A stretch of DNA of 46,644 nucleotides, from assembly GCA_049517335.1 (NCBI GenBank), contig JBEKSD010000010.1, positions 1 through 46,644 of the forward strand, written 5' to 3'. The notes beneath the pieces were generated by a model. It had not been told where the DNA came from. It searched no databases and was given only the letters and a program-made list of their open reading frames with translations. The position numbers and the translations under genes were made by a program. This stretch comes from Candidatus Omnitrophota bacterium. Its GTDB lineage: Bacteria > Omnitrophota > Gorgyraeia > Gygaellales > Profunditerraquicolaceae. Shown here piece by piece: positions 11,184-46,644 of this stretch (position 1 is the stretch's first letter; every line of letters begins with the position of its first letter).

Positions 11184-11184
11184 C

Positions 11185-11718: not shown

Positions 11719-11723
11719 ATCAA

Positions 11724-25136: not shown

Positions 25137-26059
25137 ATCAGGACTTGAAAGCTTTAGTGGATAATATTGAACAGGTCATCATCGGAAAAACTGAAGCGGT
25201 GAAATTGCTTATTGTTGGGTTGCTGACGAACGGCCATATCTTGATGGAGGATGTCCCCGGAGTAGGGAAAACCACATTAAGCATGGCTCTGGCAAAATCC
25301 ATGAATGTGGATTTTAAGCGCATACAATTTACCCCCGACCTTCTTCCGACGGACATTACCGGAGGTTTTATCTATAATCCTAAGACAGGGGAGTTTGACT
25401 GTAAAAAAGGCCCGGTGTTTACCAATATCCTTCTGGCGGATGAAATTAACCGTACTACCCCGCGAACGCAATCCGCGCTCTTAGAGTGCATGCAGGAATA
25501 CAGGGTTACTCTTGACGGAAAGACCTTTGAGCTTAACCGTCCCTTTATGGTTATTGCCACTCAAAACCCTATTGAATATCAGGGGACTTATTCTTTACCT
25601 GAGGCCCAGATTGACAGGTTCCTTATGCGCCTTACTATGGGCTACCCTTCGGTAAACGAAGAGGTAAGGGTTATCTCCGGCCAGAAAGTAAAACACCCGC
25701 TGGAAAGCATAAAGCCGGTAATAGATGCAGCCGCGGTTTTAGCCTTACAGGAGAAAGTTAAAATCATACAGGCAACTGATAATATTCTTGATTATATCGT
25801 CCGGCTGGTATTTGCTACACGGCAGGACAAGGAAAATATTAAATTGGGTGCTAGCCCCCGCGCTTCCATCGCGTTAATGAGGTCTTCCTGCGCCTGGGCG
25901 CTGCTTGAAGGCAGGGATTATGTTGTTCCCGATGATGTAGTAAAGATGATTCCCTGGGTACTTAAACACAGAATAATCCTGCAGCCTAAGGCGCTTGTTG
26001 CCGGCAGAACCGCTGATTCTATTATTGCTGAGATAACTAAAAATACGCCCATTCCTTAA
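25133..26059 (+). CDS. MoxR-family AAA+ ATPase
   Basis: EDVPGVGKT, RIQFTPDLLP.D, LADEINR..PRTQSALLE, ATQNPIE..GTY.LPEAQIDRF, GASPR. Confidence 0.96.
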   Translation: MNQDLKALVDNIEQVIIGKTEAVKLLIVGLLTNGHILMEDVPGVGKTTLSMALAKSMNVDFKRIQFTPDLLPTDITGGFIYNPKTGEFDCKKGPVFTNILLADEINRTTPRTQSALLECMQEYRVTLDGKTFELNRPFMVIATQNPIEYQGTYSLPEAQIDRFLMRLTMGYPSVNEEVRVISGQKVKHPLESIKPVIDAAAVLALQEKVKIIQATDNILDYIVRLVFATRQDKENIKLGASPRASIALMRSSCAWALLEGRDYVVPDDVVKMIPWVLKHRIILQPKALVAGRTADSIIAEITKNTPIP

Positions 26060-30289: not shown

Positions 30290-31264
30290 ATGTTGATAGT
30301 TATTTTTTTTATTAGTGCCATAGTCACAATAACCTTTATTGAGTTTTTACGTAAGTTCCCGGCAATAACAAATGGTTTTATGCAGCAGGGAGTGCCGGCA
30401 ATAGGCGGATTGAGCATGGGCGCAATGTTTTTTATTCTGGCCCCCGCCATTTTCCTTCAAAAAGGCATCTTTCCTAAAGAAGCCCAGGGCATATTGCTGG
30501 CTTCTTTCTTTATGTTTATCTTCGGGATTATTGACGATAAAAAGAGGCTGTCTGTTGTGGTCAAGGCAATTATGCAGATTATTGCCGCCCTGATTTTGGT
30601 TGCCTTCGGGGTAAAGACCCAGATTATTTATATCGGTACTACAGCCAACATTATTATTACCCTGATCTGGCTAATCGGGATTACGAATTCTTTTAACCAC
30701 CTGGATATTATGGACGGCCTAGCCGCAGTTGCGGCTGCTATTTGCGTAGGAGCCTTTTTATTTTTGACAGCACTAAAAACAGATATTTTCCCTATTACTC
30801 TGGCCGTAATATTAATCGGAGGCTTGAGCGGTTTCTTAAGATATAATTTACCGCAAGCAAAGGTTTATTTAGGCAATACCGGCAGTCATTTTATCGGGTT
30901 TATCATTGCCGCTATGGCTATCACTATTAGTTATGCTACGATAGAAAGGAAGATCGCCTTAATCAGCCCGCTTTTAATTCTTGGCCTGCCTATTTTTGAC
31001 ACCGCTTTTGTTATTTTTATGCGCATATTAAAAAGGAAATCGCCTTTTATGAAGAGCAATGACCATATCGCTACCCGTCTTTTAAGGATAGGTTTATCTA
31101 AGTGGCAGACATTATTATTGATGGGAGGCTGGGGTATGTTATGCGCTTTTTCAGGCATATCCTTATGCCTTAATTTACTTCCCGGGTTATTACTAATCGC
31201 GGCGGTATTAATGTTAAGTTTAGCCGTATTCTTATATGCTGCCAGAGCGGCTATCAATGATTAG
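30290..31264 (+). CDS. WecA/TagO-like undecaprenyl-phosphate sugar-1-phosphate transferase (MraY superfamily)
   Basis: P.IGG, GIIDD, NSFNHLDIMDGLA, YNLPQAKVYLGNTGS, PIFDT, R.....PF....DH. Confidence 0.92.
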   Translation: MLIVIFFISAIVTITFIEFLRKFPAITNGFMQQGVPAIGGLSMGAMFFILAPAIFLQKGIFPKEAQGILLASFFMFIFGIIDDKKRLSVVVKAIMQIIAALILVAFGVKTQIIYIGTTANIIITLIWLIGITNSFNHLDIMDGLAAVAAAICVGAFLFLTALKTDIFPITLAVILIGGLSGFLRYNLPQAKVYLGNTGSHFIGFIIAAMAITISYATIERKIALISPLLILGLPIFDTAFVIFMRILKRKSPFMKSNDHIATRLLRIGLSKWQTLLLMGGWGMLCAFSGISLCLNLLPGLLLIAAVLMLSLAVFLYAARAAIND

Positions 31265-31280: not shown

Positions 31281-33098
31281 ATGAATATTTTAGGTATTTC
31301 CTGCTTTTATCATGATAGCGCTGCTTGTTTGATAAGCGACGGTAAGGTTATCGGAGCGGTACAGGAAGACAGGTTTACGCGAAAAAAACACGATTCCTCT
31401 TTTCCTTCTCATGCAATTCAATGGTGTTTAAAAGAAAGCTCTCTTAACGGTAATGGCCTTGATTATGTAGTCTTTTATGAGAAGCCGTTCATTAAGTTTG
31501 AGCGGATTCTTGAAACTTGTTTAAGCTATGCTCCTTCAGGGGTAAGGCAATTTTTGCAGGCGATGCCTTTATGGCTTAAACAAAAGTTATGGATACCCGA
31601 TATTATCCGAAAGGAGCTTGGATACCAGGGGAAAGTCCTTTTTTGCACACATCATGAGTCCCACGCTGCCAGCGTTTTCTATCCTTCGCCTTTTAATGAA
31701 GCGGCTTTTCTAACTATGGATGGAGTCGGTGAATGGGAGACTACCAGTTTTGGAGTAGGCTGCGGAAATAGCCTGAAATTTGAGCAATATCTGCAGTTTC
31801 CCCACTCCTTAGGTTTATTATATTCTGCGTTTACTTATTATGCGGGATTTAAAGTCAACTCAGGCGAATATAAACTGATGGGTCTTGCTCCTTATGGTAA
31901 GCCGCGCTACGCGGATTTGATTCTTGATAAATTAATTGAGCTTAAAGACGACGGTTCCTTCAAGCTTAATTTGGAATATTTTGGGTATTGTAACGGCTTG
32001 CGCATGACCAGTTGGAAATTTGAGCGTCTCTTTAGAGGGACTCCCCGTAAGCCTGAGACAAGAATTACACAGAAAGAGATGGATTTAGCTGCTTCAGTAC
32101 AGAAGGTTACCGAAGAAATTATGCTAAAAATCTCAAGGTATATACATAGAATTACCGGACAAAATAAGCTTTGCCTTGCTGGCGGAGTGGCGCTTAATTG
32201 TGTAGCCAACGGCCGTATTCTGCGCGAAGGGCCTTTTAAAGAAATATGGATCCAGCCGGCAAGCGGAGATGCCGGCGGAGCTCTGGGTGCGGCATTGTCA
32301 GTATGGTATAAATATCTTGGGAATAAACGTGTTTCCGACGGAATTAAGGACAACCAGCAAGGCTCTCTTTTGGGGCCTTCCTATAATGATGATGAGATAG
32401 AAAACTTCCTTAAAGAAGAGAATATTCCGTTTAAGAAGCTCAGTTATACTGAATTGCCAAAAACTGTTTCTCATCTTATTGAAGAAGGTAAAGTTATTGG
32501 TTGGTTCCAGGGAAGATTAGAGTTTGGGCCGCGCGCCTTAGGCTCAAGGAGCATCATAGCGGATGCCCGGGATACTCAGATGCAAAGTAAAATGAATTTA
32601 AAAGTTAAATATCGTGAGTCATTCCGGCCGTTTGCTCCTACAATACTCAAGGAAGAAGTTGCTAATTGGTTTGATCTGGATAAAGAAAGCCCTTATATGC
32701 TGTTAGTCGCAGCGGTAAAGAAAAATAAAAGATCGGGTTCTGATGCTGCGCTTACGCAAGCAGTCGGTTTTGACAAGCTTAAGGTTGAACGCTCGCTGAT
32801 TCCTGCGGTTACCCACGTTGATTATTCCGCCCGGATACAAACTATTGCGCGCGAAGATAACCCACTATATTATGATACCATAAATGAATTTTTCAAAAAA
32901 ACAGGATGTCCGCTTATAATAAATACGTCTTTTAACGTGCGGGGAGAGCCTTTAGTTTGCACGCCGCAGGATGCATTCCGCTGCTTTATGCGTACGCAGA
33001 TGGATTATCTTATGATAGGCAGTTATCTTTTGGATAAACAGCTTCAGACGAAAGTAGGGCAAGAAGAAAATTGGAAAGAGTATTTTGAATTGGATTAA
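31281..33098 (+). CDS. O-carbamoyltransferase, NodU/CmcH/SxtI family
   Basis: ILGIS..YHDSAA, HHESHAAS, DGVGE, GEYKLMGLAPYG, AGGVALNC, EFGPRALG.RS, KYRESFRPFAP, HVDYSAR, NTSFN. Confidence 0.96.
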   Translation: MNILGISCFYHDSAACLISDGKVIGAVQEDRFTRKKHDSSFPSHAIQWCLKESSLNGNGLDYVVFYEKPFIKFERILETCLSYAPSGVRQFLQAMPLWLKQKLWIPDIIRKELGYQGKVLFCTHHESHAASVFYPSPFNEAAFLTMDGVGEWETTSFGVGCGNSLKFEQYLQFPHSLGLLYSAFTYYAGFKVNSGEYKLMGLAPYGKPRYADLILDKLIELKDDGSFKLNLEYFGYCNGLRMTSWKFERLFRGTPRKPETRITQKEMDLAASVQKVTEEIMLKISRYIHRITGQNKLCLAGGVALNCVANGRILREGPFKEIWIQPASGDAGGALGAALSVWYKYLGNKRVSDGIKDNQQGSLLGPSYNDDEIENFLKEENIPFKKLSYTELPKTVSHLIEEGKVIGWFQGRLEFGPRALGSRSIIADARDTQMQSKMNLKVKYRESFRPFAPTILKEEVANWFDLDKESPYMLLVAAVKKNKRSGSDAALTQAVGFDKLKVERSLIPAVTHVDYSARIQTIAREDNPLYYDTINEFFKKTGCPLIINTSFNVRGEPLVCTPQDAFRCFMRTQMDYLMIGSYLLDKQLQTKVGQEENWKEYFELD

Positions 33099-33686: not shown

Positions 33687-34985
33687 ATGGCTAAAAAGAA
33701 AATCGTTATTGCGGGTGGAGGGCTTGCCGGTTTAAGCGCGGCGTGGCATCTTCAGAAAAAAGGCGTTGACTGTATTCTTTTTGAGAAAGAAACAGAAGTC
33801 GGAGGGTTATGCCGTTCGGCGCATGTTAAGGGTTTTACGTTTGACCGCTGCGGCCACCTGTTCCATTTTAAATACCGCTATACGTTTGAGCTTATAAAAG
33901 ATATGCTCGGAGATAATTTGCTCGAGCATAAGAAAAGCGCCTGGATTTATTCGCATAAGCGTTTCACCCGGTACCCATTTCAGGCTAACCTTTATGGTTT
34001 GCCTAAACCAGTAATTAAAGAATGCTTGCTTGGTTTTATACAGGCGCGGCGTAACGGTTCTCCTGAAGCCCGGTCGAAAATGACATTCCTGGATTGGGTT
34101 AATCAAACTTTCGGCAAGGGAATTGCCGAGCATTTTATGATTCCCTATAACAGAAAATTCTGGACGGTTGAGCCCGAAGAATTAACCTGCAATTGGTTTG
34201 ATGGTTTTATTCCTGTCCCCAGCTTAAAGGATATTGTAGAAAGTACTCTGGAAGAGAACAAAAGATCAATCGGGTATAATGCCCAATTTTGGTATCCTAA
34301 AAAAGGGGGGATACAAGAAATTCCGCGCTATCTGGCTTCGCGCATTAAAGGTATTCATGCCGATCATGAGATTAGCCGGATTGATTTTAAGGATAAAAAG
34401 CTTATCTTTAGGAATGGAAGCCAGTGTCCATATGGTACCCTGATTTTGACGATTCCTTTACCGGAGCTCCTTGAGCTTATGTATGACCTCCCGCGGCAGG
34501 TGGCTGAAGCGCTTAAACAGCTTCGTTACAATTCGATTTATAACTTGAATTTGGGAATTTGCAGTTCTGAAGCGCCTGATAAACATTGGGTTTATTTTCC
34601 GGAAGAAGCATTCGTATTTTTTCGCGCCGGTTTTCCGGGTAATTTCTCTCCCGTATCTTGTCCTAAAGAAGGCAGTTCGATTTATATCGAAGTTGCTTAT
34701 GGGATGAGCAGGCAGCTGGAGAAAAACACGGTTGTTGCGCGTATTAAAAAAGACCTGCAGCGCGCAGGAATCTTGCGCGCCCAGGATACGGTTTTAGTTG
34801 AAAATATAAACGATATTGAATACGGTTATATTATTTATGACCGCCGTCGGGAACGCTCACTCAGGAAAATCACTGTTTTCTTAAAGAAAAACGGAATTGA
34901 ATGTCTGGGCCGTTATGGTTCATGGAGTTATAAGTCTATGGAAGATGTTTTAATTGACGGCAAAAGGTTAGCCGATTCTTTATGA
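33687..34985 (+). CDS. FAD-dependent oxidoreductase, UDP-galactopyranose mutase-like/HemY-fold
   Basis: GGGLAGL, GGLC.S....GFTFD..GH, PYNRKFW, FWYPKKGG, YGY, GRYGSWSY.SM. Confidence 0.75.
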   Translation: MAKKKIVIAGGGLAGLSAAWHLQKKGVDCILFEKETEVGGLCRSAHVKGFTFDRCGHLFHFKYRYTFELIKDMLGDNLLEHKKSAWIYSHKRFTRYPFQANLYGLPKPVIKECLLGFIQARRNGSPEARSKMTFLDWVNQTFGKGIAEHFMIPYNRKFWTVEPEELTCNWFDGFIPVPSLKDIVESTLEENKRSIGYNAQFWYPKKGGIQEIPRYLASRIKGIHADHEISRIDFKDKKLIFRNGSQCPYGTLILTIPLPELLELMYDLPRQVAEALKQLRYNSIYNLNLGICSSEAPDKHWVYFPEEAFVFFRAGFPGNFSPVSCPKEGSSIYIEVAYGMSRQLEKNTVVARIKKDLQRAGILRAQDTVLVENINDIEYGYIIYDRRRERSLRKITVFLKKNGIECLGRYGSWSYKSMEDVLIDGKRLADSL

Positions 34986-34986: not shown

Positions 34987-35817
34987 GTGTTTAAAATGAT
35001 CGGGATGTTCAGGGAAATAGTTTCGCGCAGAAACCTTTTATGGGAACTGGTGCTTAAGGATTTGAAGCTGCGTTATGCGCGGTTGGGCCTGGGGTTCCTA
35101 TGGGCGCTTCTTTCTCCGTTGGTGACGGTAGCAATCTTTTATTTTATTTTTTCCTTCCTTTTGAAGATTAAGACGCAAGAAGCGCCTTTTGTTTTATACT
35201 TTATGAGCGCTATTTTTACCTGGGGGGTATTGCAGGATTCAGTGAACGGGTCAGTTGACAGCTTAATAAGCAATAAGAATTTACTTCGCGAATCCCATTT
35301 TCCTCATTATTTTATTCCTCTTGCAAAAGTGCTCGCCAATGCGTTAAATTTCCTTCCGGTTTTGGTAATAGTTATCACCGTTTCTTTATTCACCTTAAAA
35401 GGAAGTTCGGAATTTATAATTTTTTTGCCCCTCGTTTTGGTAATTCATTTGGTTCTTGCGTTTAGCTTAGCGCTCATTTTTTCTATTCTTTATTTGCGCT
35501 TCAGGGATGTAAAATATATTGTGGAACATACACTTACGCTTCTTTTTTATATGACGCCGGGTTTTTATTCTATTTATCTGGTTAAAGAGAGATTACCCAA
35601 GTTTTTCTTTTGGTTGTATATGTATAATCCTTTCACAGGGCTGTTGCTTTTTTATAGGGTTATTCTTCTGAAAGGTTACTACGGCTTCGTATACAAGGAC
35701 GTGGGGTTGCAGACACTTTTTCTTGTACCGGTTATTTTTTCGTTTCTTATTTTATACGTAGCCCTGAAATTATATGAAAAACGCAAAAGTGAAATTAATG
35801 ATTACCTCTCATACTGA
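34987..35817 (+). CDS. wzm: Polysaccharide ABC transporter permease (Wzm-type)
   Basis: DLKLRY...LG.LW.LL.P, RFRD, FYMTP.FY, YNP; 6 TMs. Start may be slightly downstream. Confidence 0.9.
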   Translation: MFKMIGMFREIVSRRNLLWELVLKDLKLRYARLGLGFLWALLSPLVTVAIFYFIFSFLLKIKTQEAPFVLYFMSAIFTWGVLQDSVNGSVDSLISNKNLLRESHFPHYFIPLAKVLANALNFLPVLVIVITVSLFTLKGSSEFIIFLPLVLVIHLVLAFSLALIFSILYLRFRDVKYIVEHTLTLLFYMTPGFYSIYLVKERLPKFFFWLYMYNPFTGLLLFYRVILLKGYYGFVYKDVGLQTLFLVPVIFSFLILYVALKLYEKRKSEINDYLSY

Positions 35818-37573
35818 TTCCGATTCCGAGTTAAGCCAGCCCACACGGCGCGCCACGCTTGAGCTTTTAAATGTCGGTAAAAGATATGCTTTCCAAGGTA
35901 AGGCGGAGCGAGCGCACCTTGCTTTTGGGCAGGTTGATTTTTGGGCGCTTAAGGATGTAAGTTTCAGCGCTTTCGAAGGGGAAGCCTTGGGAATTATCGG
36001 CCGTAACGGCGCCGGAAAGACGACGTGTCTTAATGTTATTGCTGGCGTTTTATCTTCTACCGAAGGAGAAGTACGTGTTAGAGGTAAAGTACTCGGGTTG
36101 TTTAATCTGGGTGTGGGTTTTCAGGAAGAATTAAGCGGCAGAGAAAATATCTTTCTTAACGGAGCAATTCTTGGAGCAGAAAGAAAAGAGATAGAAGAAA
36201 AGCTTAATTCAATCATCGACTTCTCTGAGCTGGGGAAATTTATTGATATGCCTTTGGGCAGTTATTCGCAGGGGATGCGCCTGCGTCTTGCGTTTAGCAT
36301 TATGGCCAGCCTTGATTTTGACCTGTTGGTTATCGATGAGGTCTTAGCAGTGGGGGATATACTTTTCCAAAATAAGTGTTTTGAGCGACTGATGGATTTT
36401 AAGCGCCGTAACAAGACGCTGATATTTACTTCACAAGGGATGGATGTTATTGAACGGTTTTGCGACAGGGTAGTATGTCTTGATCATGGCCGCCTTATTT
36501 TTAGCGGTGCTGTGCAGGAAGGGATTAATCGTTACCGCGAGCTTCTCAACACCAAGAAGTTTTACGTGGGAATCCAAGAAGAGCGCCCCCCCCTGATTAC
36601 ACATACGAAAAAGTGGTTAGATGATATTCCTACCTGGGAACAGGTTACCGGAGCCAAGGAGGCTACAATCGATAGAGTGCGGTTCTTTGCTCGTTTCCAC
36701 AGAAGGCGCGATTCTCTTTATCCGGGGGAGCCTTTACGCGTAAAAATAGATTTTACTGTACGGGATAGAATAAGGGAACCCCATTTTGGAGTCGCTTTTT
36801 TCCGTAAAGACGGCGTTTATTGTTACGGGCCCAATACCGAGTTTGACGGCTATGTTTTCGGGGAACTAAAAAAAGGAAAAGGGCACTGTATATTTTTCTG
36901 TCCCCGTGTCAATCTTGCTCCGGGTGAATATAGCGTATCGGTTGCTATTTGGGATAAGCATGAAAAAATTGCCTATGATTATCACAATGGGTGTTATAAA
37001 ATGAGAATACAAGGTATCCCTCAGGCAGAAGAGCTCCTACGTTTGCCGTACCGCGAGAAATGGGCGGGCTGGAAAAAGTATTTGCAGAAGACATTCTTCC
37101 TTCGGAAAATTAATGCACGAATTTATGCCGTAGCCGAAAAGGACAAAAATGATATAGCGCTGGATAGCGTCAAGTGTGTTTCTTTTGATATCCTTGATTC
37201 CGCAGGGGAAAAACGGAATAATTTTTTTACAAATATTCCGGCTGAATTCGTAATGGAATTTAGCTTGTTTAAACAGCCGTCGCGTTCAAACGGATATTTT
37301 ATGTATTTGGGAATATATCGTGACGACGGAATTTTATGCCAGAGGTTTGTAGCTATGTTTAACGACCTGAATAAATGCATAATTGAAATCCCGCAACTTG
37401 CGTTATTACCGGGCGGGTATAGGATTTCAACCGGTATTTGGGATGCGCACGCTGGAAATTTCCTTTGGTTGCGCAACAATGCATATAGCCTGCAGATGAT
37501 TTTTGACCGCAAAGATCACGGGACAGTATACTTAAATCATAAATGGACTGTGTCGCAACAAAGTGATAACTAG
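35774..37573 (+). CDS. wzt: Polysaccharide ABC transporter ATPase (Wzt-type) with two tandem Wzt_C domains
   Basis: FWALKDVSF, GRNGAGKT, YSQGMRLRLAF, IDEVLAVGD; two C-terminal beta-sandwich repeats (..RKDG...LAPGEYSVSVAIWD; ..RDDG...LLPGGYRISTGIWD). Start could be ATG 35798. Confidence 0.92.
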   Translation: MKNAKVKLMITSHTDSDSELSQPTRRATLELLNVGKRYAFQGKAERAHLAFGQVDFWALKDVSFSAFEGEALGIIGRNGAGKTTCLNVIAGVLSSTEGEVRVRGKVLGLFNLGVGFQEELSGRENIFLNGAILGAERKEIEEKLNSIIDFSELGKFIDMPLGSYSQGMRLRLAFSIMASLDFDLLVIDEVLAVGDILFQNKCFERLMDFKRRNKTLIFTSQGMDVIERFCDRVVCLDHGRLIFSGAVQEGINRYRELLNTKKFYVGIQEERPPLITHTKKWLDDIPTWEQVTGAKEATIDRVRFFARFHRRRDSLYPGEPLRVKIDFTVRDRIREPHFGVAFFRKDGVYCYGPNTEFDGYVFGELKKGKGHCIFFCPRVNLAPGEYSVSVAIWDKHEKIAYDYHNGCYKMRIQGIPQAEELLRLPYREKWAGWKKYLQKTFFLRKINARIYAVAEKDKNDIALDSVKCVSFDILDSAGEKRNNFFTNIPAEFVMEFSLFKQPSRSNGYFMYLGIYRDDGILCQRFVAMFNDLNKCIIEIPQLALLPGGYRISTGIWDAHAGNFLWLRNNAYSLQMIFDRKDHGTVYLNHKWTVSQQSDN

Positions 37574-37581: not shown

Positions 37582-39108
37582 ATGATTTCTGACAAGATGC
37601 AAAACTTAAAATTTCTAAACCGGAAAGTATGGTTTTTTTTATTTTTTCTAACAGTAGTACTCATATTTAAAGGCAAATTTCTAAACCTGCCTCTTTTTTG
37701 GGATGAGACAAGTTATGTAGATAACTGTTTGCTCGTATTGAAGGATAATTTCAACCCTTTTATCGGTACTGTCTATTCATATAGGCCGCCCCTTATTTTT
37801 ATACTTACGGCATTGGTTTATAAAATATTCGGTTTTTCTATTATAGCTTCGCGTTTTCTTATGCCCGTATTTGGGTTTATTGCAGTCTGGTTTACTTTTC
37901 TAATAGGCGAGAAGTTATACGATAGGGAAACCGGCTTTTGGGCCGGTCTTCTGCTGTTTTCTTCGCCCATATTTTTTGCCCAAAGCGGCCTCCTGCTTGA
38001 AAGCATACCTGTTACGGCCCTTACCGCTTCCACTATTTATTTTTTTATTAAGGGCAGGAAAATAATGTATGTTATTTTTGCGGCATTATTAGCGCTAGTT
38101 AGAGAAGTTGGCGTGTTGGTTATAATAGCTATAGTCGGTTATGAGTTCCTGATTAACTTGGCAAAGTTTGTTATTCCTTCAAATAAGAGCCCGCTTTTTT
38201 ACAAAATAAAAATATTAGGATTAAAGACTCTATTTTATATTTTGCCTTTGATCTTTTTCCTTATATGGATTATATGTAATAAGTTATTCCTGGGTTGGTT
38301 CCTTTGGCCCATGAATGCCTTAATTTTAAAACAGTACGGGTTTTTCCCGGAATATATTAAAATGATTTTAGATAATGCTTTTTGGATACATTTCAGGTTT
38401 TTAATTTCAATTGCTATAGTAGCGGCACTCTTAACCTCTCTATTTAACCCTAAAATCAGGAATAGATTCTTGAAGAAAGAGTTTTTGCTTTTTCTTATCC
38501 TGACCTCCGGCATAACATTCTTCTATATGTGGGTTGAGGCAGTGAGAGATGCGTATGGTAATTTTGCGGTTTTACCGCGCTATTATCTGTTTTTACAGGT
38601 TTTGTTTTTTGTATTTGGCGCAGCCGCTATTGTCCGGATGTTTAACAATAAAGCTATACGTACCGTTATTTTTGCAGTTATCATAAGTCTTTTCGTCTAT
38701 TCTTGGTATACGCCTGATTTTAAATGGGCAGGAGAAAGGAATTTATCTTATCGCGACATAATTGAAGCCCATAAAGAGGCCGCGGAATTTTTAGAAAAGC
38801 ATTATTATTCCGCTGCTATTATTACTACTTGGCCAATTTATAGAGACTTGACTGAACTTAAATTGGGGTATGTGAAAAAGGTACTTCCGGAAGTATACGA
38901 CATAAATCACGAAGGCGTTAGTATTGATAAGCTAGCGGAAAGGATCCGGTCAAAAAAACTTACGGTAACAAAAAATGTAATTCTATTAGTGATACCTGCA
39001 AACGGGGTCCCTAATGAGGAAATGTTTAAATTTTTACGTAGGGGAAACAAGAATCTCCTTAAGGAGATAGATTTGGGCATAGAAAAGGTTTGGATATATT
39101 TGTTATGA
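37582..39108 (+). CDS. GT-C fold membrane glycosyltransferase (ArnT/PMT_2, GT39/83-like)
   Basis: WDE..Y, RPPL, KIFG.S...SR, PRY; about 11 TMs plus C-terminal soluble domain. Confidence 0.82.
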   Translation: MISDKMQNLKFLNRKVWFFLFFLTVVLIFKGKFLNLPLFWDETSYVDNCLLVLKDNFNPFIGTVYSYRPPLIFILTALVYKIFGFSIIASRFLMPVFGFIAVWFTFLIGEKLYDRETGFWAGLLLFSSPIFFAQSGLLLESIPVTALTASTIYFFIKGRKIMYVIFAALLALVREVGVLVIIAIVGYEFLINLAKFVIPSNKSPLFYKIKILGLKTLFYILPLIFFLIWIICNKLFLGWFLWPMNALILKQYGFFPEYIKMILDNAFWIHFRFLISIAIVAALLTSLFNPKIRNRFLKKEFLLFLILTSGITFFYMWVEAVRDAYGNFAVLPRYYLFLQVLFFVFGAAAIVRMFNNKAIRTVIFAVIISLFVYSWYTPDFKWAGERNLSYRDIIEAHKEAAEFLEKHYYSAAIITTWPIYRDLTELKLGYVKKVLPEVYDINHEGVSIDKLAERIRSKKLTVTKNVILLVIPANGVPNEEMFKFLRRGNKNLLKEIDLGIEKVWIYLL

Positions 39109-39132: not shown

Positions 39133-42100
39133 ATGAACGGAATTAATATGGCTAAGAAAATGTCTTTTGTAAGCATGATTATAGTTAATCATAACGGAAA
39201 GCGCTTTTTAAAAAACTGCTTTGATTCATTATTAACGCTGGATTATCCCAAGGATAGATTCGAGATTATTATGGTAGATAATTGTTCTCAAGACGGTTCC
39301 CCAGCTTTCGTAAAAAAATATTATCCCAAAGTTAAAATTATAGCTAATGATATTAATAATTATTGCAGGGCTAATAATCTGGGTATGAAGAAGGCGAAAG
39401 GCGAGTTTATCGCATTCTTAAATAACGACATTATCGTAGATAAGAAATGGCTTACAGAGTTAATACAATTTATTATTAAAGATAAATCTATAGGGGGAAT
39501 AGGAGGCAAAGTTCTGTTTACCGACGGGAAGATTCAAAGCGCAGGACATCAGGAGTACCCAAATTTTTATTGGGGAGACAGGGGATTCAGGGAGAAGGAT
39601 AACGGGCAATACGACTATATAACTGAAGTTCCGAGTCTATGCGGGGTTGCAGTAATATATAGGAAGAGCTGTCTTAACGATATAGGTTTTTTGGATGAAG
39701 ATTTTAATATGTATCTGGAAGACGTAGATATGGGCATAAGATGCGGTAAAAAATCATGGAAGTTATTGTTCTACCCTAAGAGCGTTGTCTATCATAAATT
39801 TCACGGCACCATAGGAATCGAAGAGAAAGCCCGGTTTTGGCAGGAAAAAAATAGACTACTTTTAATCGCAAAACACTGGCCAGATAAGTTGCCAGAGGCT
39901 ATCTCCGGAAGAGAATATTTTAAAGAACGGGATATATGCGACTTTGTATCTGGGGCTTATACTAAATTAATTGATGCTCACGGTATAGAAACAGCGAGAA
40001 AAATATCTCCGATGATATTTGAAGAGCTGAGAAAAATTTTTAATTATGAAGGAGGAATTCTCGCGCTTGATAATAAGATAAGTTTATCTGAAGTAAAACA
40101 ACAGAATATTGAAAAAAACAAAATAATTAGCTTTCTTAAAAGAGAATTGCAGAGAAAAGATAAGTGGCTAGAGCAGCTAAAAGACCTGGATATAGAAAAA
40201 AATCAACTGCTGGAAGATTCTAAACAACAGTTCCAGAGAGAATTGCAGAGAAAAGATAAGTGGCTAGAGCAGCTAAAAGACCTGGATATAGAAAAAAATC
40301 AACTGCTGGAAGATGCCAAGCAACAATTAAAGACGAAGGATGAATATTTAGGTCAATTAAAACAACAAGATGTGGAAAAGAATAATGCGTTGACAGAAGC
40401 CAGCCAGCAAATAAAGGCACAACATGAAACTATAGAGTGTCTAAAGCAGGAAAATAATGGTAAGAACGAAATAATAAACCAGTTACAAAAAGAGAATCAG
40501 CTATTGCAGCAGAATTTCAATCATATATCCGGGGAATTAAAAGGAGTTTATGGTTCAACCGGTTTTAGACTGATTCTAAAGCCTCTATGGACTATATTAT
40601 GGCAGATAAAACAGCCGTTGAAGAAATTACGCCCTAGGTTATTAAGCGGCTTGCAAGTTTTAAACACGTCTATTCCCAAGATTGCCGCTAGGATAAGGCA
40701 AGATATTGATATCGTAATCGCCAATAAGTGGTCGCAGGGGTACCTCCGCCATATATATAGAAAAAGTTTAGCACCCACTCCCAGGAAGCTGATTCTAAAG
40801 TTGACCTCAAAATGTAATTTGGACTGCCGGTTTTGCGATATCGCACGCCAAAATCATGGAAAAAAAGAACTATCGAAAGAGGAGGTATTTAGAATCATAG
40901 ATTCTGCTTCTAGGCTAGGCGTAGAGGAATTGGAGATTACCGGAGGGGAGCCGCTTCTTCACCCGGACTTATGGGAAATCGTAGAATACGCTTATGCAAA
41001 TAATATCGGCTCCAATGTTACTACAAACGGACTTTTAATTAAAGATCAGATAGACAAAATAATAAAATCTCCGGTGTGGAATATATGCATATCCGTAGAC
41101 GGCAAGCAGGAAACTCACGATAAGTTAAGAAACCGACAGGGAGCATACCAGGCGCTGATAGAGGCATTGGATTTGCTTAAGAATCATAAAAAGCATGTGG
41201 TTGTCGGTTTTGTGGTAACTAATGAAAATGTCCATGAATTAGAGGAAGTTTACAATTATTTTACAGGTAAAAATATCGATTTTGATTTCTGGCCCGTGAA
41301 TAACCAACCGGGGTTATATTTTAAAAACGAAAGACAAAACAAGCTGTTTGTAAATTTTGCAAATAAACTCAAGAGGATAGGAAAAATTTCTCCTGCCCGG
41401 CACCGGTATTATTTAAAAACGCTCGATTATTTTACGGATAACTTGCCTAAAAGAAGATGTCTGGGCCTCATTGACCATTTTGCCATTGATACAGAGGGCG
41501 AAATACTTCCTTGTTGCGTATGGGGAGCAAAACATTTAAATTTAGGTAATGCTTTAGGGGGCAACTTAGAAACAATCTGGTATTCAGAAGAATTTCGTAA
41601 AGCAAGAAAGGCGCTATTAGAACAGGGATGTTCGGAATGTTATAATACCGCTTTATGCCGTTTTCAGGAGGTAACCAAAAAACCGTTTTTGATAAATGGC
41701 AAGAAAGAATCTTTGAATAAAGTAGAAAAGCCTTCTAGAGTGCTTTTAAATGTAACCATAAAATGCAATCTTTCCTGCCTGCATTGCGATAACTGGAAAA
41801 TGAAGCCGCAAAAAGAGCTAACCTTTAAACAGATCAAGAAGATAATAGACGAACTAAGTAGGTGGCTTGACGAAGGGTTTGAACTTATTATAGGAGGCGG
41901 GGAGCCATTTATCCGGAAGGGCATCATAGATATTATTAAATACTGTAAGTCTAAAAAGATCCGCACTTCTGTTCCAACAAATGGTACCCTCCTTAATAAG
42001 GAATTATGCGACGAAATATTAGAATCAGGCATATCAAATCTAATCTTTTCTCTAGATGGCATTAACGCCCGAACCCATGATTTTTCAAGGGGCAAAAAAG

Positions 42101-42672
42101 GCGTTTTTGATAAGATTATGGCCGCCCTAACATATATCAATAAACATAGAAATAATAGATTCCCGTTAAATATAGCCACTATTTTAATGCAAACTAATTT
42201 AGATGAAATATTGGATTTAGTAAATCTTAGGCAAAGAGAAGGTTTAACGGGTATTTATTTTTTACCATTATCACAAAATTTTAATGCTTCTTATAATCCC
42301 GATTGGTATAAAAATAGTCCTTTATGGCCAAAAGATAGCAATAAGTTAAATGAGGTGATTGACCGCCTTATCCAATTAAAAAGAGAAAATTTCAGCTTGG
42401 TAGAAAATACGGTGGAACAACTTACTTTATTCAAGAAATATTATCACAACCCCAATAGTGAATTTCACGAACAGTGTACCGTTGGCAGAAGGATGTTTTC
42501 TATTACAGAGGACGGCCATATTCTTTTATGTCCGATGAGAGGGCCTATAGGGCATATAAAAAAGGACAGATTCGATAAAATCTGGCATTCCGTAAAAGCG
42601 CAGGAAGAAAGAAGAAAGAACGATTTATGCACAAAAAGCTGTAAGATATTGGGCTGTTATAATAATGAATGA
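39133..42672 (+). CDS. Multidomain protein: GT2 - coiled coil - radical SAM/SPASM - radical SAM/SPASM
   Basis: GT2 (VSMIIVNHN, VDN.S.DG, LNND, DEDF.MYLEDVD); about 140-aa heptad region; CNLDCRFC (40813-40836) + TGGEP + C..GEILPCC..CSEC.....C; CNLSCLHC (41764-41787) + GGGEP + C..GHILLC..CTKSC....C. Confidence 0.92.
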   Translation: MNGINMAKKMSFVSMIIVNHNGKRFLKNCFDSLLTLDYPKDRFEIIMVDNCSQDGSPAFVKKYYPKVKIIANDINNYCRANNLGMKKAKGEFIAFLNNDIIVDKKWLTELIQFIIKDKSIGGIGGKVLFTDGKIQSAGHQEYPNFYWGDRGFREKDNGQYDYITEVPSLCGVAVIYRKSCLNDIGFLDEDFNMYLEDVDMGIRCGKKSWKLLFYPKSVVYHKFHGTIGIEEKARFWQEKNRLLLIAKHWPDKLPEAISGREYFKERDICDFVSGAYTKLIDAHGIETARKISPMIFEELRKIFNYEGGILALDNKISLSEVKQQNIEKNKIISFLKRELQRKDKWLEQLKDLDIEKNQLLEDSKQQFQRELQRKDKWLEQLKDLDIEKNQLLEDAKQQLKTKDEYLGQLKQQDVEKNNALTEASQQIKAQHETIECLKQENNGKNEIINQLQKENQLLQQNFNHISGELKGVYGSTGFRLILKPLWTILWQIKQPLKKLRPRLLSGLQVLNTSIPKIAARIRQDIDIVIANKWSQGYLRHIYRKSLAPTPRKLILKLTSKCNLDCRFCDIARQNHGKKELSKEEVFRIIDSASRLGVEELEITGGEPLLHPDLWEIVEYAYANNIGSNVTTNGLLIKDQIDKIIKSPVWNICISVDGKQETHDKLRNRQGAYQALIEALDLLKNHKKHVVVGFVVTNENVHELEEVYNYFTGKNIDFDFWPVNNQPGLYFKNERQNKLFVNFANKLKRIGKISPARHRYYLKTLDYFTDNLPKRRCLGLIDHFAIDTEGEILPCCVWGAKHLNLGNALGGNLETIWYSEEFRKARKALLEQGCSECYNTALCRFQEVTKKPFLINGKKESLNKVEKPSRVLLNVTIKCNLSCLHCDNWKMKPQKELTFKQIKKIIDELSRWLDEGFELIIGGGEPFIRKGIIDIIKYCKSKKIRTSVPTNGTLLNKELCDEILESGISNLIFSLDGINARTHDFSRGKKGVFDKIMAALTYINKHRNNRFPLNIATILMQTNLDEILDLVNLRQREGLTGIYFLPLSQNFNASYNPDWYKNSPLWPKDSNKLNEVIDRLIQLKRENFSLVENTVEQLTLFKKYYHNPNSEFHEQCTVGRRMFSITEDGHILLCPMRGPIGHIKKDRFDKIWHSVKAQEERRKNDLCTKSCKILGCYNNE
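40141..40314 (+). repeat. Exact 78-bp direct repeat, 96-bp period, in the coiled coil
   Basis: 40141-40218 is identical to 40237-40314; encodes RELQRKDKWLEQLKDLDIEKNQLLED twice. Confidence 0.95.
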
Positions 42673-42746: not shown

Positions 42747-43946
42747 TTGCCAAGAAGAATAAAAATTATTGTTAGTGACACAGATAAACTTTATCCTCCT
42801 ATATGGGGCGGGCCAAAGAGGATTTGGAATTTATATGGCAATTTTTCACAAGATAAGTTTGACATTGATTATGTGGGATGTGATTTTTCTCAAGAGTCAT
42901 TCAAAATTAATAAACTTGCTCCTAACTTCAGGGAATTTTTAGCACCGCGCCCTTATCATTATCGTAAGCTATGGAGCCCTCTGCATAAAAGATATTTTCA
43001 AGATTTACGCTTTGACGCTTTTGTTTACCTGATGATGTCTAGCGTAAAAGAGTTCGGGGAAGCGTTTAAGCAATTAAGAGCAGATATTTTAATCTCGTCT
43101 CATCCGTGGTCAGCCCCTTCTATGGAAAAGAAAAAAGGTCAGCTTTTTATATATGATGCTCATAACTGTGAATATAGCCTGACAAAGGCCCTGATTAAAA
43201 GGCATTCCTTATGCGGAGTTATCAGCCTATGGGTGAGGAATATAGAATCCGCAGCCTGTAAAAAAAGCGATATCATCCTTGTTTGTTCAAAACAGGAAAA
43301 GAATGAATTTATAAATCTATATGGTGTAAAAGAAAAAAAGATTCACATTATCCCTAACGGCGCTATTCCCCGTGTAATAAATACCAGCGAAGATAAAGCG
43401 GCGGCTAAAGAACGATTAGGGGTGAAAGATAGAAAAACAGCAGTCTTTATTGGCTCCTATTATGAACCCAATATACGGGCAGTGCGTTTTATTATAGACA
43501 ACTTAGCCTTCAATTTAAGCGAATATGATTTTCTAATTGGAGGCGCATCGTTAGAAAATGTATTCTCCGGCATCAATTTACCGGAGAATATAAAGTTTTA
43601 CGGCACGCTTTCCGAAGAAAAACTGGACTTGATTATGAAAGCAGCGGATATTGCTATTAACCCAGTGCTTATCGGCTCAGGTATTAATATCAAGATGCTG
43701 GATTATATGTCTTACGGTTTGCCTATCGTAACAACCGAATGCGGCGCCCGTGGGATTAATGCAAACGGCAAAATACCCATGATTATATCAACTCTGCAAA
43801 ACTTTGCTGATAATATAAGAAACTTTGGTGGCGATGGTGCTCTATATGCCAAGATGTCAGAAGATGCAAGATTGTTAGCTAATGAACAGTATAGCTGGAA
43901 AACAATAAGTAGCGAATTAGAAAAGTTAATTTTAGGGGCGTTATAA
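42747..43946 (+). CDS. Glycosyltransferase family 4
   Basis: YPP..GG..R, YDAHNCE, IIPNG, GSGINIKMLDYMS.GLPIVTT. Confidence 0.9.
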   Translation: MPRRIKIIVSDTDKLYPPIWGGPKRIWNLYGNFSQDKFDIDYVGCDFSQESFKINKLAPNFREFLAPRPYHYRKLWSPLHKRYFQDLRFDAFVYLMMSSVKEFGEAFKQLRADILISSHPWSAPSMEKKKGQLFIYDAHNCEYSLTKALIKRHSLCGVISLWVRNIESAACKKSDIILVCSKQEKNEFINLYGVKEKKIHIIPNGAIPRVINTSEDKAAAKERLGVKDRKTAVFIGSYYEPNIRAVRFIIDNLAFNLSEYDFLIGGASLENVFSGINLPENIKFYGTLSEEKLDLIMKAADIAINPVLIGSGINIKMLDYMSYGLPIVTTECGARGINANGKIPMIISTLQNFADNIRNFGGDGALYAKMSEDARLLANEQYSWKTISSELEKLILGAL

Positions 43947-43994: not shown

Positions 43995-45296
43995 ATGAGT
44001 AAAGTTTTATTATTGGGAATATGTCCTTTACCGATAGAACAAGAAGAGATAATGAGCGCCTTAGGAATAAGGACATGGCAATTTACAAAGTCTCTTTTGG
44101 GAGACGGGCACGAAATATGCTTAGTGTGCTCCCAAAGGCCCGGTAGTTACGGTAAAAATGGAGTAAGAAATTCCGAGATAAGAAAACTTGAAAAAAGATT
44201 AATTTTCCATTCTTTATCCCAGGAGCAGATTTTAGATTTAGCCTATCTGCAGAAAATCTACGATGAATTGCAACCAGACTGTATTGTAAGCGCAGGCTCT
44301 TCTCTTTTGGGCTATGCTGTCGTTCAAATTAAAAGCAATGTACCTATTTGGATTGACCAGTGCGGTGAATTGACAGCGGAAGCACAGATGAAGGCTTTTA
44401 TTGAAAAGGATAATAAACACCTTTGTGGCTTTTTGAAAATAGATAAGCAGGTTCTTGAAAAGGGAGACGTTTTTTCTTCAATTTCCCCTGCGCAAAGATA
44501 TGCCTTAATAGGAAAATTAGGGATGAGTGGTAGACTCAATAAGGATACAGTCGGTTATGAGTTTGCGTATGTAATACCAAGCGGGGTAGATTATGTTGAC
44601 GATATAGAAAAAAGCACTGCAGCTAAAAGAATAATTCCAAGGGGTTCAGTAAAAGAAGATGACTTTGTAGTTTTATGGTCGGGTAGCTATAATACATGGA
44701 CCAACGTTGATGTTCTATTTTCTGCTCTGGAAAAGGCAATGGCTAATAATGAAAAAATAAAGTTTGTATCTACAGGGGGTAATGTCCCTCTTCATAATGA
44801 AATAACATATTCATATTTCCTGAAACTTATAGGCCAATCCCGTTTTAAGGAGAAGTTTATCATGTTAGGTTGGATTCCAACCAGGGATATGGTAAATTTA
44901 TACCTTGAAAGCAATCTGGGAATTAATATCGACAGGCCCTGTTATGAAGCAGAATTAGGCTGCCGTACTAGGGTCCTGGGATGGATGGGCGCGGGGTTGC
45001 CGGTATTAACTACAAAGTTCTGTGAATTGACTAAAATTTTGGAAAAGAATAAATTGGGGTTTATTTTTCCCGCAGAAGATGCAGAGGCGCTTTCAAACTC
45101 AATATTAGGCTTATCTTTTCAAAAAGGATTATTAAAAGAATATGCTCAAAGGGCAAAAAACTTTGTTAGGCAAGAATTTAGTTACGAAAATACTACCAGG
45201 CCGCTACGGGCATGGGTGAATAATCCAAGCCATTCCTTAGATAGGATTAAGACGACGCAAGAAATAACGACGCATAATAATATGAGTACTTTATAG
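43995..45296 (+). CDS. Glycosyltransferase family 4-like protein
   Basis: GIRTWQF, VLWSG.Y..W, F..LGWIP, E.ELG.RTR...W..AGLPVLTT, F.YE....PL. Confidence 0.8.
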   Translation: MSKVLLLGICPLPIEQEEIMSALGIRTWQFTKSLLGDGHEICLVCSQRPGSYGKNGVRNSEIRKLEKRLIFHSLSQEQILDLAYLQKIYDELQPDCIVSAGSSLLGYAVVQIKSNVPIWIDQCGELTAEAQMKAFIEKDNKHLCGFLKIDKQVLEKGDVFSSISPAQRYALIGKLGMSGRLNKDTVGYEFAYVIPSGVDYVDDIEKSTAAKRIIPRGSVKEDDFVVLWSGSYNTWTNVDVLFSALEKAMANNEKIKFVSTGGNVPLHNEITYSYFLKLIGQSRFKEKFIMLGWIPTRDMVNLYLESNLGINIDRPCYEAELGCRTRVLGWMGAGLPVLTTKFCELTKILEKNKLGFIFPAEDAEALSNSILGLSFQKGLLKEYAQRAKNFVRQEFSYENTTRPLRAWVNNPSHSLDRIKTTQEITTHNNMSTL

Positions 45297-45324: not shown

Positions 45325-46644
45325 ATGGTCACAGTGACAAAAAATACGCCATCAGTTAGCGTTATCATCCCTAGTTATAACGGAAAACATTTTTTAAAAG
45401 AATGTCTCTCATCTCTTTACGAACTACGTTACCCTTCTAAGAGCTTGGATATTAAAGTGGTTGATAATGTTTCGACCGACGGTACCGCGCAATACGTACA
45501 CAGGAATTTCCGTAAGGTACAGGTGTTACGTAACGATGAGAATAATTTTTGTAAAGCGAACAATCTGGGCATAAAAAATTCCCGCGGCGAGTTAGTTGCA
45601 TTCCTGAATAATGATACGCAAGTTGAAAAAGACTGGCTTAAGGCATTGGTTGAATCTATTGAGGGGAGTGAGCAGATAGGTTGCGTAGGCAGCAAAGTGC
45701 TTTTTCCGGACGGCAGGATTCAGAGCGCCGGACATTATGAATTCCCTAATTTTCGCTGGGGCGATAGAGGATTACACGAACCCGACATTGGGCAATATGA
45801 AACCGCTGAAGAAGTCAACAGTTTATCCGGATCTTCAGTTCTTTTCCGCCGCAGGTGCCTTGATGACGTCGGATATTTTGATGAAGATTTCATAATGTAT
45901 CTGGAGGATGTGGATATATTTTTGCGTTGCCGCAAGAAGAATTGGAAGCTTTTATACGTTCCAGCCAGTATCGTGCATCATTCATTTCACGGTACCGTAG
46001 ATGAAAAATCTGTCCGGTTTTATATTGAGCGTAACCGGCTCCTGCTTATTGCCAAGCATTTTCCTCAGGAGCTTTCGCATGCTTTGGAAAGCAAGGAATA
46101 TTCATTGCGGAATGAAGAACTTTTCAATATTCTGCCGGACTTATTTATGAAATTACTAAAACATCATAATAAGGATTCCTTACAGTCCACACTGAAAGAT
46201 TTTTTTGCCAGCCTAAAGCGTGTTTATAATTTGTCTAAAGACCAGATCGTGCAGGAGCTGAATAACTCGCTTGCTGATAGCCGGAAACAGATGAGTGAGG
46301 ATATGCAGCAGGAGAAGGCGCGGTTAGAGAGTGATGTTTTTAAACTTAAGGATAATCTTGAAAAGAATTATACGCAGCTTGAAGAACTAAAAAAGGCGCT
46401 TACCCAAAAAGATGCGTTGTTACAGGAAATATCGCAGATACAGGCTTCCCTTGAGGTAAAGGTTAATCAGAAAGAGCAGGATTTAACAGGACTACAGGAA
46501 AAATTAAATAGGTTAAGTCTTAATTCAGCTCACCGCGAAGAGAAGTTTAGCGAATTGCAGGAAGAGCGCGAAGCGTTGGCAGGAGAACTCTCCGGCCGCA
46601 GCGAAGAGCTGCTTAAGGAGCATCAGGTCGTAGATACCCTAAAA
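45325..46644 (+). CDS. GT2 - coiled-coil protein, paralogue of the N-terminal part of 39133-42672 (runs off window), not in ORF track
   Basis: AGGAGG 45313-45318, ATG 45325; MVTVTKNTPSVSVIIPSYNGK...LNND...GRIQSAGHYEFPNFRWGDRG...DEDFIMYLEDVD; E/Q/K/L heptads from about 46250; I found no stop before the window end (440 codons). Confidence 0.92.
   Translation, partial: MVTVTKNTPSVSVIIPSYNGKHFLKECLSSLYELRYPSKSLDIKVVDNVSTDGTAQYVHRNFRKVQVLRNDENNFCKANNLGIKNSRGELVAFLNNDTQVEKDWLKALVESIEGSEQIGCVGSKVLFPDGRIQSAGHYEFPNFRWGDRGLHEPDIGQYETAEEVNSLSGSSVLFRRRCLDDVGYFDEDFIMYLEDVDIFLRCRKKNWKLLYVPASIVHHSFHGTVDEKSVRFYIERNRLLLIAKHFPQELSHALESKEYSLRNEELFNILPDLFMKLLKHHNKDSLQSTLKDFFASLKRVYNLSKDQIVQELNNSLADSRKQMSEDMQQEKARLESDVFKLKDNLEKNYTQLEELKKALTQKDALLQEISQIQASLEVKVNQKEQDLTGLQEKLNRLSLNSAHREEKFSELQEEREALAGELSGRSEELLKEHQVVDTLK

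Follow-up and report, generated by a model that had tools for sequence, protein, structure and literature searches.

We analysed a 46,644-nucleotide stretch of DNA from a Candidatus Omnitrophota bacterium (GenBank assembly GCA_049517335.1, contig JBEKSD010000010.1, positions 1 to 46,644; hereafter the window, to which coordinates refer unless a related locus is named), in which a Wzm/Wzt-type glycan locus contains a single open reading frame (ORF; P0001, 39133..42672, + strand, ATG start) that joins a family 2 glycosyltransferase (GT2) domain, a coiled coil, a conserved motif and two radical SAM domains (rSAM1 and rSAM2) within 1179 residues. The ABC-2 permease Wzm is encoded at 34987..35817 (+) and Wzt, a 599-aa protein with an ABC ATPase and a C-terminal Wzt_C carbohydrate-binding domain (residues 292-413), at 35774..37573 (+); the ORF is the second gene after wzt. 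An earlier note on this DNA had described just such a product, encoded two genes after wzm/wzt in an ABC-transporter-dependent glycan locus, and the analysis bears it out on each of these points, the carbohydrate-binding domain of Wzt supporting the locus assignment and the translation and Pfam matches confirming the composition of the ORF. Specifically, Glycos_transf_2 matches residues 14-182 (E 8e-26), Radical_SAM matches two stretches (E 3.7e-52, best 557-709) and SPASM likewise two (E 2.4e-16, best 776-837), and the basic segment quoted in that note, GVYGSTGFRLILKPLWTILWQIKQPLKKLR, corresponds to residues 471-500. No transmembrane segment was found in the ORF product, the highest 19-residue Kyte-Doolittle mean being 1.06. 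The GT2 domain, together with a family-specific helical extension, covers residues 6-322 (39148..40098, +), as delimited by Pfam, our own hidden Markov model (HMM) and an alignment of 19 full-length family members (A1), in which its acidic motifs D49, D99, D188-E189-D190 and E196-D197 are invariant.

Misassembly had been raised earlier as a possible source of this fusion. The host genome is a metagenome-assembled draft (1.45 Mb, 31 contigs, 92% complete), yet the fusion is genuine and an assembly artefact is excluded, because 18 full-length homologues (at least 99% query cover, 36-49% identity, 1123-1270 aa) share the same Pfam set and three other samples yielded contigs across the junctions. 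These contigs, from peat-metagenome runs X2-X4, are at least 99% alike and together cover parts of all ORF domains, with one X2 contig spanning the rSAM1/rSAM2 junction (41616-41890) and no indels listed; parts of the ORF are without cover in X1, X3 and X4, and the X1 contigs break at an internal repeat described below. No RNA data set holding the sequence was listed. A word-indexed search of 5.8 billion proteins yielded 149 matches among 8000 scored candidates, and an exhaustive search with phmmer, run against 1.84 billion cluster representatives, yielded 2123 proteins at E <= 1e-30, the best 150 of which were listed. Within the phylum, a match at E <= 1e-120 was found in 3 of 201 sampled genomes (three candidates scored per genome), the host genome included and the other two belonging to the same family (2/17), a patchy spread of the full architecture that is typical of serotype-like loci. 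One same-family homologue (G127:C3:5203-8787, - strand; 42% identity over residues 4-1177) contains two in-frame TAA codons and may represent either a pseudogene or sequencing errors.

Both radical SAM domains look catalytically competent from their conserved residues, in keeping with the earlier view that each is complete. rSAM1 (residues 544-862; 40762..41718, +) carries C561/C565/C568 of the CxxxCxxC motif (561-568), GGEP at 604-607 and auxiliary cysteines C776, C794, C833 and C836, and rSAM2 (residues 863-1179; 41719..42669, +) carries C878/C882/C885 (878-885), GGE at 922-924, extended to GGEP at 922-925, and auxiliary cysteines C1115, C1133, C1166 and C1170. Both CxxxCxxC motifs, both GGE motifs and five cysteines per C-terminal extension are invariant in A1, and in broader alignments of 35 sequences per domain the cluster motif, GGE and four auxiliary cysteines remain invariant, with the spacing C-x17-C-x38-C-x2-C in rSAM1 and C-x17-C-x32-C-x3-C in rSAM2; the auxiliary region of the ORF itself contains six cysteines in rSAM1 and five in rSAM2. 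SPASM domains are defined by two auxiliary 4Fe-4S clusters and a seven-cysteine motif. The ORF scores 60.2 bits against the Pfam SPASM cut-off of 21.5, and the four invariant auxiliary cysteines of each domain would be enough for one 'twitch'-type auxiliary cluster, a second being conceivable, with the rSAM1 spacing presumably resembling the twitch pattern of BtrN.

AlphaFold2 models built from the 35-sequence alignments (rSAM1, predicted local distance difference test (pLDDT) 91.4, predicted TM score 0.90; rSAM2, 94.4 and 0.92) show the partial TIM-barrel fold that, together with CxxxCxxC and GGE, places both domains in the Radical SAM superfamily (PF04055). In Foldseek searches of the PDB, the top match of rSAM1 is BlsE (7vob; E 5e-17, TMq 0.73, TMt 0.74), whereas that of rSAM2 is SkfB (E 1.4e-17, 0.73/0.62), followed by BlsE (E 3.1e-17, 0.74/0.72); SuiB, CteB, anSME, MoaA, PqqE, BtrN, DesII, viperins and EpeE rank lower, and PDB sequence searches with the domains return the same set. 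BlsE shares its overall fold and size with both ORF domains (TM 0.72-0.74 in both directions), and BtrN reaches TMt 0.64-0.65. Like the ORF domains, BlsE, BtrN and DesII combine a compact radical SAM core with a short cysteine-bearing C-terminal extension and have no peptide-recognition domain, although identity is only 13-20% and these are free-standing enzymes acting on soluble secondary-metabolite intermediates, whereas the ORF domains stand in tandem on a glycosyltransferase-coil scaffold in a surface-glycan locus. The accessible text of PMC3715490 describes BlsE as a radical SAM decarboxylase using cytosylglucuronic acid. Conversely, the peptide-modifying enzymes SkfB, SuiB, CteB, anSME and PqqE match the ORF in Pfam SPASM hits and have comparable fold scores (E 1e-17 to 1e-13) but lower TMt (0.47-0.64), owing to additional N-terminal regions or complete SPASM portions. 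The ORF differs from them further in that no PqqD/RRE domain (RRE, the recognition element of RiPP maturases, RiPPs being peptides made on the ribosome and modified after translation) was found by Pfam at E <= 0.01, and in that only four auxiliary cysteines per domain are invariant across the family. Maturase models of NCBIfam score far below their cut-offs (for example, StsB, 153 bits versus 625), so that the ORF has neither of the two marks of a RiPP maturase, and an ESM Atlas search returned unnamed radical SAM clusters only.

Between the catalytic parts lies a predicted parallel, in-register coiled coil (residues 314-472; 40072..40548, +), supported by a dimer model and by composition. A two-copy model of residues 290-500 scores 0.35, against 0.00 for the best of three controls. 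Among proteins of solved structure, 21 of 30 pairs attain that mark, compared with 0 of 23 single chains. Contacts are at least 90% alike between runs, the partner pLDDT is at least 81, and continuous a/d contacts with 3-4 spacing run across all 159 residues. The long coil of the earlier note is upheld as a prediction, its estimated length of about 140 residues is not. With the rise of about 0.148 nm per residue of a coiled coil, 159 residues correspond to a rod of about 23 nm. Proline is absent from residues 314-472, and E, K, Q, L, N, D and R make up 72% of residues 300-475. The coil contains a tandem duplication of 96 nt (32 aa; 40141..40325, +; 1.9 copies, 96% match), and an X2 contig links position 40140 to 40237, that is, with exactly one repeat copy missing, which is explained either by a polymorphism in coil length or by collapse of the repeat during assembly. 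Across the family, the stretch between GT2 and motif is the sole poorly aligned part and is variable in length: the motif position spans residues 370 to 548 in 29 motif-bearing proteins and the GT2 model ends near 320-337, leaving a spacer of roughly 46-224 aa. A word-based search with residues 225-530 retrieved only ten proteins, all known family members.

Immediately after the coil stands an almost invariant motif, S475-T-G-[FY]-[RK]-x2-L-[KR]-P-L-W-x2-L-W-x2-K493 in the 19 members of A1 and S475-T-G-F-R-x2-L-K-P-L-W-x2-L-W-x2-K493 in the ORF (40555..40611, +), recognized by its conservation and composition. The corresponding regular expression matches 29 of 122 retrieved proteins, including one with GT2 and GT4 domains and no radical SAM domain (P0030). 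The motif is basic and rich in tryptophan (charge +3 to +5; hydrophobic moment about 0.5) and is a candidate docking site for the membrane or for a partner.

To place the ORF in a broader context, we scanned prokaryote genomes, with each species represented once, and obtained 79 related loci, mostly from Candidatus Omnitrophota, with others from Planctomycetia, Deltaproteobacteria/Thermodesulfobacteriota, Woesearchaeota/Nanoarchaeota and Patescibacteria metagenome-assembled genomes (MAGs); one, L030, comes from the cultured Desulfatibacillum alkenivorans DSM 16219. Co-occurrence with the exporter, suggested earlier as a check, was found by tblastn for Wzt in 38 of the 79 loci and for Wzm in 32, alongside homologues of the locus flavoprotein (21/79), WecA-like protein (15/79) and carbamoyltransferase (8/79). 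In loci with a close GT2 orthologue, the distance from the wzt end to the GT2 start is at most 100 nt in 21 of 31 and at most 300 nt in 23 of 31. These orthologues come in several formats: GT2 alone (352-396 aa; L024, L028, L055 and L059), GT2-coil (519-631 aa; L011, L015, L016 and L017), GT2-coil-motif followed by two radical SAM domains (about 1140-1260 aa; L001-L004) or by a long C-terminus of another kind (1340 aa; L010), and GT2-rSAM without a coil (716-726 aa; L025 and L030), in which an rSAM2 orthologue is joined to the glycosyltransferase. In L015, L016 and L017, the gene for the GT2-coil protein without radical SAM domain comes after a wzt that encodes a carbohydrate-binding module.

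A census of architectures with our own HMMs (G, GT2; m, motif; R, radical SAM) across 261 retrieved proteins gave 22 GmRR, 11 GmR, 10 RR, 7 GR, 3 GmGRR, 3 mRR, 2 GRR, 1 GmGR, 1 RRR and 172 G only. Pfam resolves larger relatives further: P0138 (2163 aa) reads GT2, coil plus motif, GT2, GT4, rSAM, rSAM, an order shared by P0146 and, with a single radical SAM domain, by P0140; P0128, P0030 and P0153 read GT2, coil, (GT2), GT4 without radical SAM, which is the format of the known ruler protein WbbB. In one family member (P0021, 1123 aa), both radical SAM domains are of the rSAM2 type by our HMMs, rather than type 1 followed by type 2.

Beyond the fusion itself, radical SAM domains of this family form large arrays. 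Counting matches of at least 70% coverage, at least one domain is present in 62 of the 79 loci, at least two in 47, at least three in 29 and at least five in 15; the last group holds arrays of 5-13 paralogous twitch/SPASM genes or domains (among them L047, L044, L063, L067, L038 and L064), the largest comprising 13 paralogues (L047, about 4.9-19.5 kb). CxxxCxxC is kept in 198 of 202 family domains of these loci. Domains are fused to GT2 in L030, L025 and L063 and to a GT4 domain in L035, a Woesearchaeota locus with the order wzm, wzt (Wzt_C), GT4-rSAM1 fusion, rSAM2, GT4a and B12-rSAM. MAGs whose labels read Omnitrophota, Planctomycetia, Patescibacteria and DPANN archaea carry such arrays, which reach 13 members, are in many cases joined to GT2 or GT4 and have B12-rSAM enzymes alongside. 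A Wzt homologue is also present in 19 of the 35 loci that are at least 15 kb long and have a radical SAM domain. In L063, a GT2-rSAM fusion follows right after wzt and is succeeded by more rSAM, B12-rSAM and GT2 genes, with wzm also present; its Wzt (L063:3382-6096) is about 900 aa long, as are the equivalents in L040, L043, L044, L045, L064, L067, L068 and L072, and the roughly 650-740 residues beyond the ATPase have no Pfam match, Wzt_C not being detected. In a FastTree phylogeny of 196 domains (matches below 80% coverage or with a stop excluded), rSAM2 belongs to a 22-member clade that also takes in copies from D. alkenivorans, archaea and Patescibacteria (support 0.94); rSAM1 falls in a clade of eight with weak support (0.235), on which no claim rests. 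In L030, where the GT2-rSAM fusion lies at 9980..12154, the product of the next gene (L030:12151-13257) has an unusual order, its SPASM match (13-75) preceding its Radical_SAM match (131-307).

The genes around the ORF fit the same glycan context. Downstream lie a GT4a glycosyltransferase (42747..43946, +), which appears as a conserved partner of the radical SAM modules, a second GT4-type glycosyltransferase, GT4b (43995..45296, +), and a paralogous GT2-coil protein (45325..46644, +; 41% identical to ORF residues 4-438) that is truncated by the contig end at 46644, stopping at residue 440 inside its coil. Seven of the 79 loci encode a GT4a homologue at 98% coverage or more, which in every case lies no further than 1.5 kb downstream of a radical SAM domain, and in L001 the homologue is fused to a third radical SAM domain in a single 779-aa ORF. 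Upstream, the locus encodes a WecA/MraY-family polyprenyl-phosphate sugar-phosphate transferase, assigned to initiation (30290..31264, +), a NodU/CmcH-type carbamoyltransferase (31281..33098, +) and a flavin-dependent (FAD) oxidoreductase of amine-oxidase fold, similar to phytoene desaturase and PPOX (33687..34985, +), which is syntenic in the 21 loci mentioned above. Between wzt and the ORF is a PMT_2-like (GT-C type) membrane protein (37582..39108, +) with no NCBIfam match and no tblastn match listed among the 79 loci; because the GT2 orthologue lies less than 100 nt from wzt in 21 of 31 loci, this gene is an insertion into a conserved wzt-GT2 junction. Two Wzy_C (O-antigen ligase-like) membrane proteins are encoded on the opposite strand (17282..18595, -; 22990..24096, -). 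The simplest reading of the product is an O-antigen-like polymer, because the genome encodes LpxC, the window wzt holds the sole Wzt_C match in the genome and ligase-like genes are nearby.

Other features of the window include its first 17 kb, which are housekeeping in content (GlmS and pyrimidine synthesis); a protein at 2474-3736 that has both a DUF2062 membrane domain and ankyrin repeats, a pairing uncommon in bacteria; a 979-aa ORF (27275-30214) without a Pfam or NCBIfam match, after genes at 25133..26059 for a MoxR AAA ATPase and at 26065..27297 for a DUF58 protein; and an SxtJ-like small protein after the carbamoyltransferase (31281-33504 for the pair), the two co-occurring in L015, L024 and L074.

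Coiled-coil rulers are the accepted means of coupling polymerization, capping and export in ABC-transporter-dependent pathways, and four of them offer a comparison. As set out in the accessible portion of a 2024 Journal of Biological Chemistry study of Klebsiella pneumoniae O4 and O7 (PMC11231755), WbdD, WbbB, ORF6-O7 and ORF7-O4 all have the terminator at the N-terminus, distal to the coil, and the polymerase modules, or a membrane helix that recruits them, C-terminal to it; in WbdD, a C-terminal membrane-associated amphipathic region recruits the polymerase. The ORF resembles WbbB (K. pneumoniae O12/Raoultella terrigena) and ORF6-O7 in its wzm/wzt locus with a carbohydrate-binding domain on Wzt, and in its succession of N-terminal catalytic module, long central coil and C-terminal catalytic modules; the C-terminal polymerase glycosyltransferases of those proteins are echoed by relatives of the ORF with GT2 and GT4 after the coil. 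By contrast, the N-terminal module is a GT99 Kdo transferase in WbbB or a methyltransferase-kinase in WbdD and a GT2 in the ORF, the C-terminal modules of the ORF are two radical SAM enzymes, carried by no described prototype, and a conserved S-T-G-F/Y-R/K...P-L-W motif stands after its coil. With WbdD (Escherichia coli O9a/K. pneumoniae O3), as far as the same portion of that study describes it, the ORF shares a coil that parts an N-terminal catalytic part from a C-terminal side, membrane-associated in WbdD and putatively so in the ORF, yet WbdD has a kinase and a methyltransferase and nothing past the membrane helix, whereas the ORF has two enzymes past its candidate docking motif. In most related loci, wzt and the GT2 gene are immediate neighbours, in that order, as in the WbdD arrangement. 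In O9a, it is the WbdD gene that stands directly after wzt. Structures of both WbdD and WbbB are in the PDB; since neither is among the 15 PDB sequence matches for ORF residues 1-529 (E <= 0.001), the ORF appears to work like these rulers as a functional analogue and not as a homologue.

We propose that the ORF is a WbbB-like ruler scaffold in which the N-terminal GT2 caps the chain and the radical SAM domains tailor sugars of the lipid-linked glycan, a reading to which we give roughly an even chance. The product would be a cytoplasmic, probably oligomeric scaffold enzyme of Wzm/Wzt-dependent O-antigen-like glycan assembly in what is probably an anaerobic Omnitrophota-type bacterium with lipid A genes. 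At the far end of the rod of about 23 nm, the GT2 domain would most likely add a chain-terminating sugar, which the carbohydrate-binding domain of Wzt may then recognize. The basic Trp-rich motif at the rod base would serve as the docking point, whether on the membrane or on partner enzymes, with the twitch/SPASM-type pair at the membrane-proximal base beside the putative polymerizing enzymes, namely GT4a, GT4b and the paralogous GT2-coil protein. At this position, each radical SAM domain would use a 5'-deoxyadenosyl radical to remove hydrogen from a sugar in the polyprenyl-linked glycan, resulting in tailoring during chain growth, for example by oxidation, epimerization, decarboxylation or dehydration.

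Several lines of evidence favour this division of labour, with GT2 as terminator and the radical SAM domains as tailoring enzymes: the domain order of the prototypes, the GT2-rSAM proteins without a coil, the GT2-coil proteins without radical SAM domains and the radical SAM arrays. The pair appears to travel with polymerase-side modules, as judged from P0138 and P0146, which place it after GT2 and GT4, C-terminal to the coil. Fusions to GT2 and GT4, the pairing with GT4a, the fold match to BlsE and the lack of PqqD/RRE all point to sugars as the probable substrates, and both the placement of the domains and their arrays fit glycan tailoring better than capping.

A number of observations weigh against this proposal. 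The assignment of GT2 as terminator draws on an analogy of domain order only, the coil-less GT2 orthologues of L024, L028, L055 and L059 equally fit a polymerase or adaptor glycosyltransferase, and the locus carbamoyltransferase could be an alternative source of the glycan cap, because NodU carbamoylates a non-reducing terminal sugar. The second GT2-coil protein of the locus has a role that the proposal leaves unexplained. The coil was modelled from a single sequence and as a dimer, a copy number picked arbitrarily, and the post-coil motif is only moderately amphipathic, its strict conservation suggesting a specific partner over generic membrane binding. With regard to the radical SAM domains, the peptide-modifying SkfB, SuiB, CteB and anSME score about as well as BlsE, identity to all five is just 13-23%, and the ORF falls into no functional subfamily, because all 25 of its best NCBIfam matches are below their cut-offs. 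Strong matches in only 3 of 201 phylum genomes limit generality.

The main rival assigns termination to the radical SAM pair, as the earlier note had done: a radical-made mark at the non-reducing end would be bound by the Wzt carbohydrate-binding domain, with the coil measuring from a GT2 polymerase. A cap is indeed expected because Wzt carries Wzt_C, no methyltransferase-, kinase- or Kdo-transferase-like terminator was found among the locus genes scanned, coil and radical SAM pair share one polypeptide, and, after wzt, conservation is widest for the GT2 orthologue, which might suit a polymerase. We nonetheless consider this rival unlikely, since it would reverse the domain order of all four characterized prototypes as given in the accessible portion of PMC11231755, the N-terminal slot being taken by GT2 and the radical SAM pair lying past the basic motif. 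It also sits poorly with P0138 and P0146, where GT2 and GT4 precede the radical SAM domains on the C-terminal side of the coil, and with the similar order in P0140, with the rSAM2 orthologues on coil-less GT2 in L030 and L025, and with the GT2-coil proteins that follow wzt without any radical SAM domain in L015, L016 and L017; arrays of 5-13 paralogues in 15 of 79 loci are likewise hard to reconcile with caps.

Alternatively, the membrane-proximal position may enable the radical SAM domains to act on a lipid, either the polyprenyl carrier or the lipid anchor of the glycan. They do stand directly after the basic Trp-rich motif, show weak similarity to HpnH (E 4.4e-36, below cut-off) and to GDGT-MAS (7tol), and share their locus with a conserved phytoene-desaturase/PPOX-like flavoprotein, but these similarities are no better than those to many other radical SAM enzymes, the TM score to 7tol is low (TMt 0.34-0.35) and the repeated glycosyltransferase fusions and GT4a pairing indicate sugars, which makes a lipid substrate quite improbable. 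Maturation of a peptide, whether RiPP or protein, for instance by cross-linking or oxidizing a glycosylated peptide or S-layer protein, would account for the SPASM matches and for the presence of SkfB, SuiB, CteB, PqqE and anSME among the top sequence and fold matches, and multi-rSAM cassettes are typical of RiPP loci. Set against this are the missing PqqD/RRE, the domain models having only about 30 and 16 residues ahead of CxxxCxxC, the scores of every peptide-maturase NCBIfam model far below cut-off and the wzm/wzt, WecA-like, GT2 and GT4 context of every well-covered locus, so we regard a peptide substrate as very doubtful, although no search aimed at precursor peptides was made. That the ORF is an assembly chimera, or its radical SAM domains degenerate structural remnants, would be in line with a 31-contig metagenome-assembled draft and with X1 contigs that break at the internal repeat, and is almost certainly wrong given the 18 independent full-length homologues, the 22 of 261 retrieved proteins with GT2-motif-rSAM-rSAM, the contigs of three other samples that are at least 99% alike across junctions and the invariance of all catalytic motifs.

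Among the papers searched, none was found that ties radical SAM enzymes to coiled-coil rulers or to the assembly of Wzm/Wzt glycans, and none that describes the present architecture, in agreement with the earlier remark that no characterized example is known; nor did any paper listed in a search on chain length connect radical SAM with O-antigen. Xanthomonas genomics papers that name both radical SAM and Wzt were set aside, the radical SAM mentions in their accessible passages being unrelated, and the accessible passages of Omnitrophota literature that mention radical SAM do not describe a GT2-coil-rSAM architecture. The scaffold principle is already known; novelty lies in the radical SAM modules, the motif that follows the coil and the arrays of paralogues. 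More tentatively, and with rather less than even confidence, we propose that these domains are the first recognized family to edit sugars on a lipid-linked polymer within a Wzm/Wzt machine, and that the arrays constitute a combinatorial radical glycan-editing system. The idea is open to experiment because a related GT2-rSAM/GT4a locus is present in the cultured D. alkenivorans DSM 16219.

The catalytic modules attached to rulers have so far been glycosyltransferases, kinases and methyltransferases. If our proposal is true, radical SAM enzymes acting on the growing lipid-linked polymer would bring chemistry of a new class into the assembly of surface glycans, and the family would provide an initial functional foothold in a large set of twitch/SPASM proteins from candidate phyla that are so far unassigned. 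Our results suggest that some anaerobes edit their surface sugars through radical reactions, and such an editing system, if real, would give anaerobic small-genome microbes surface sugars beyond those of nucleotide-sugar pathways.

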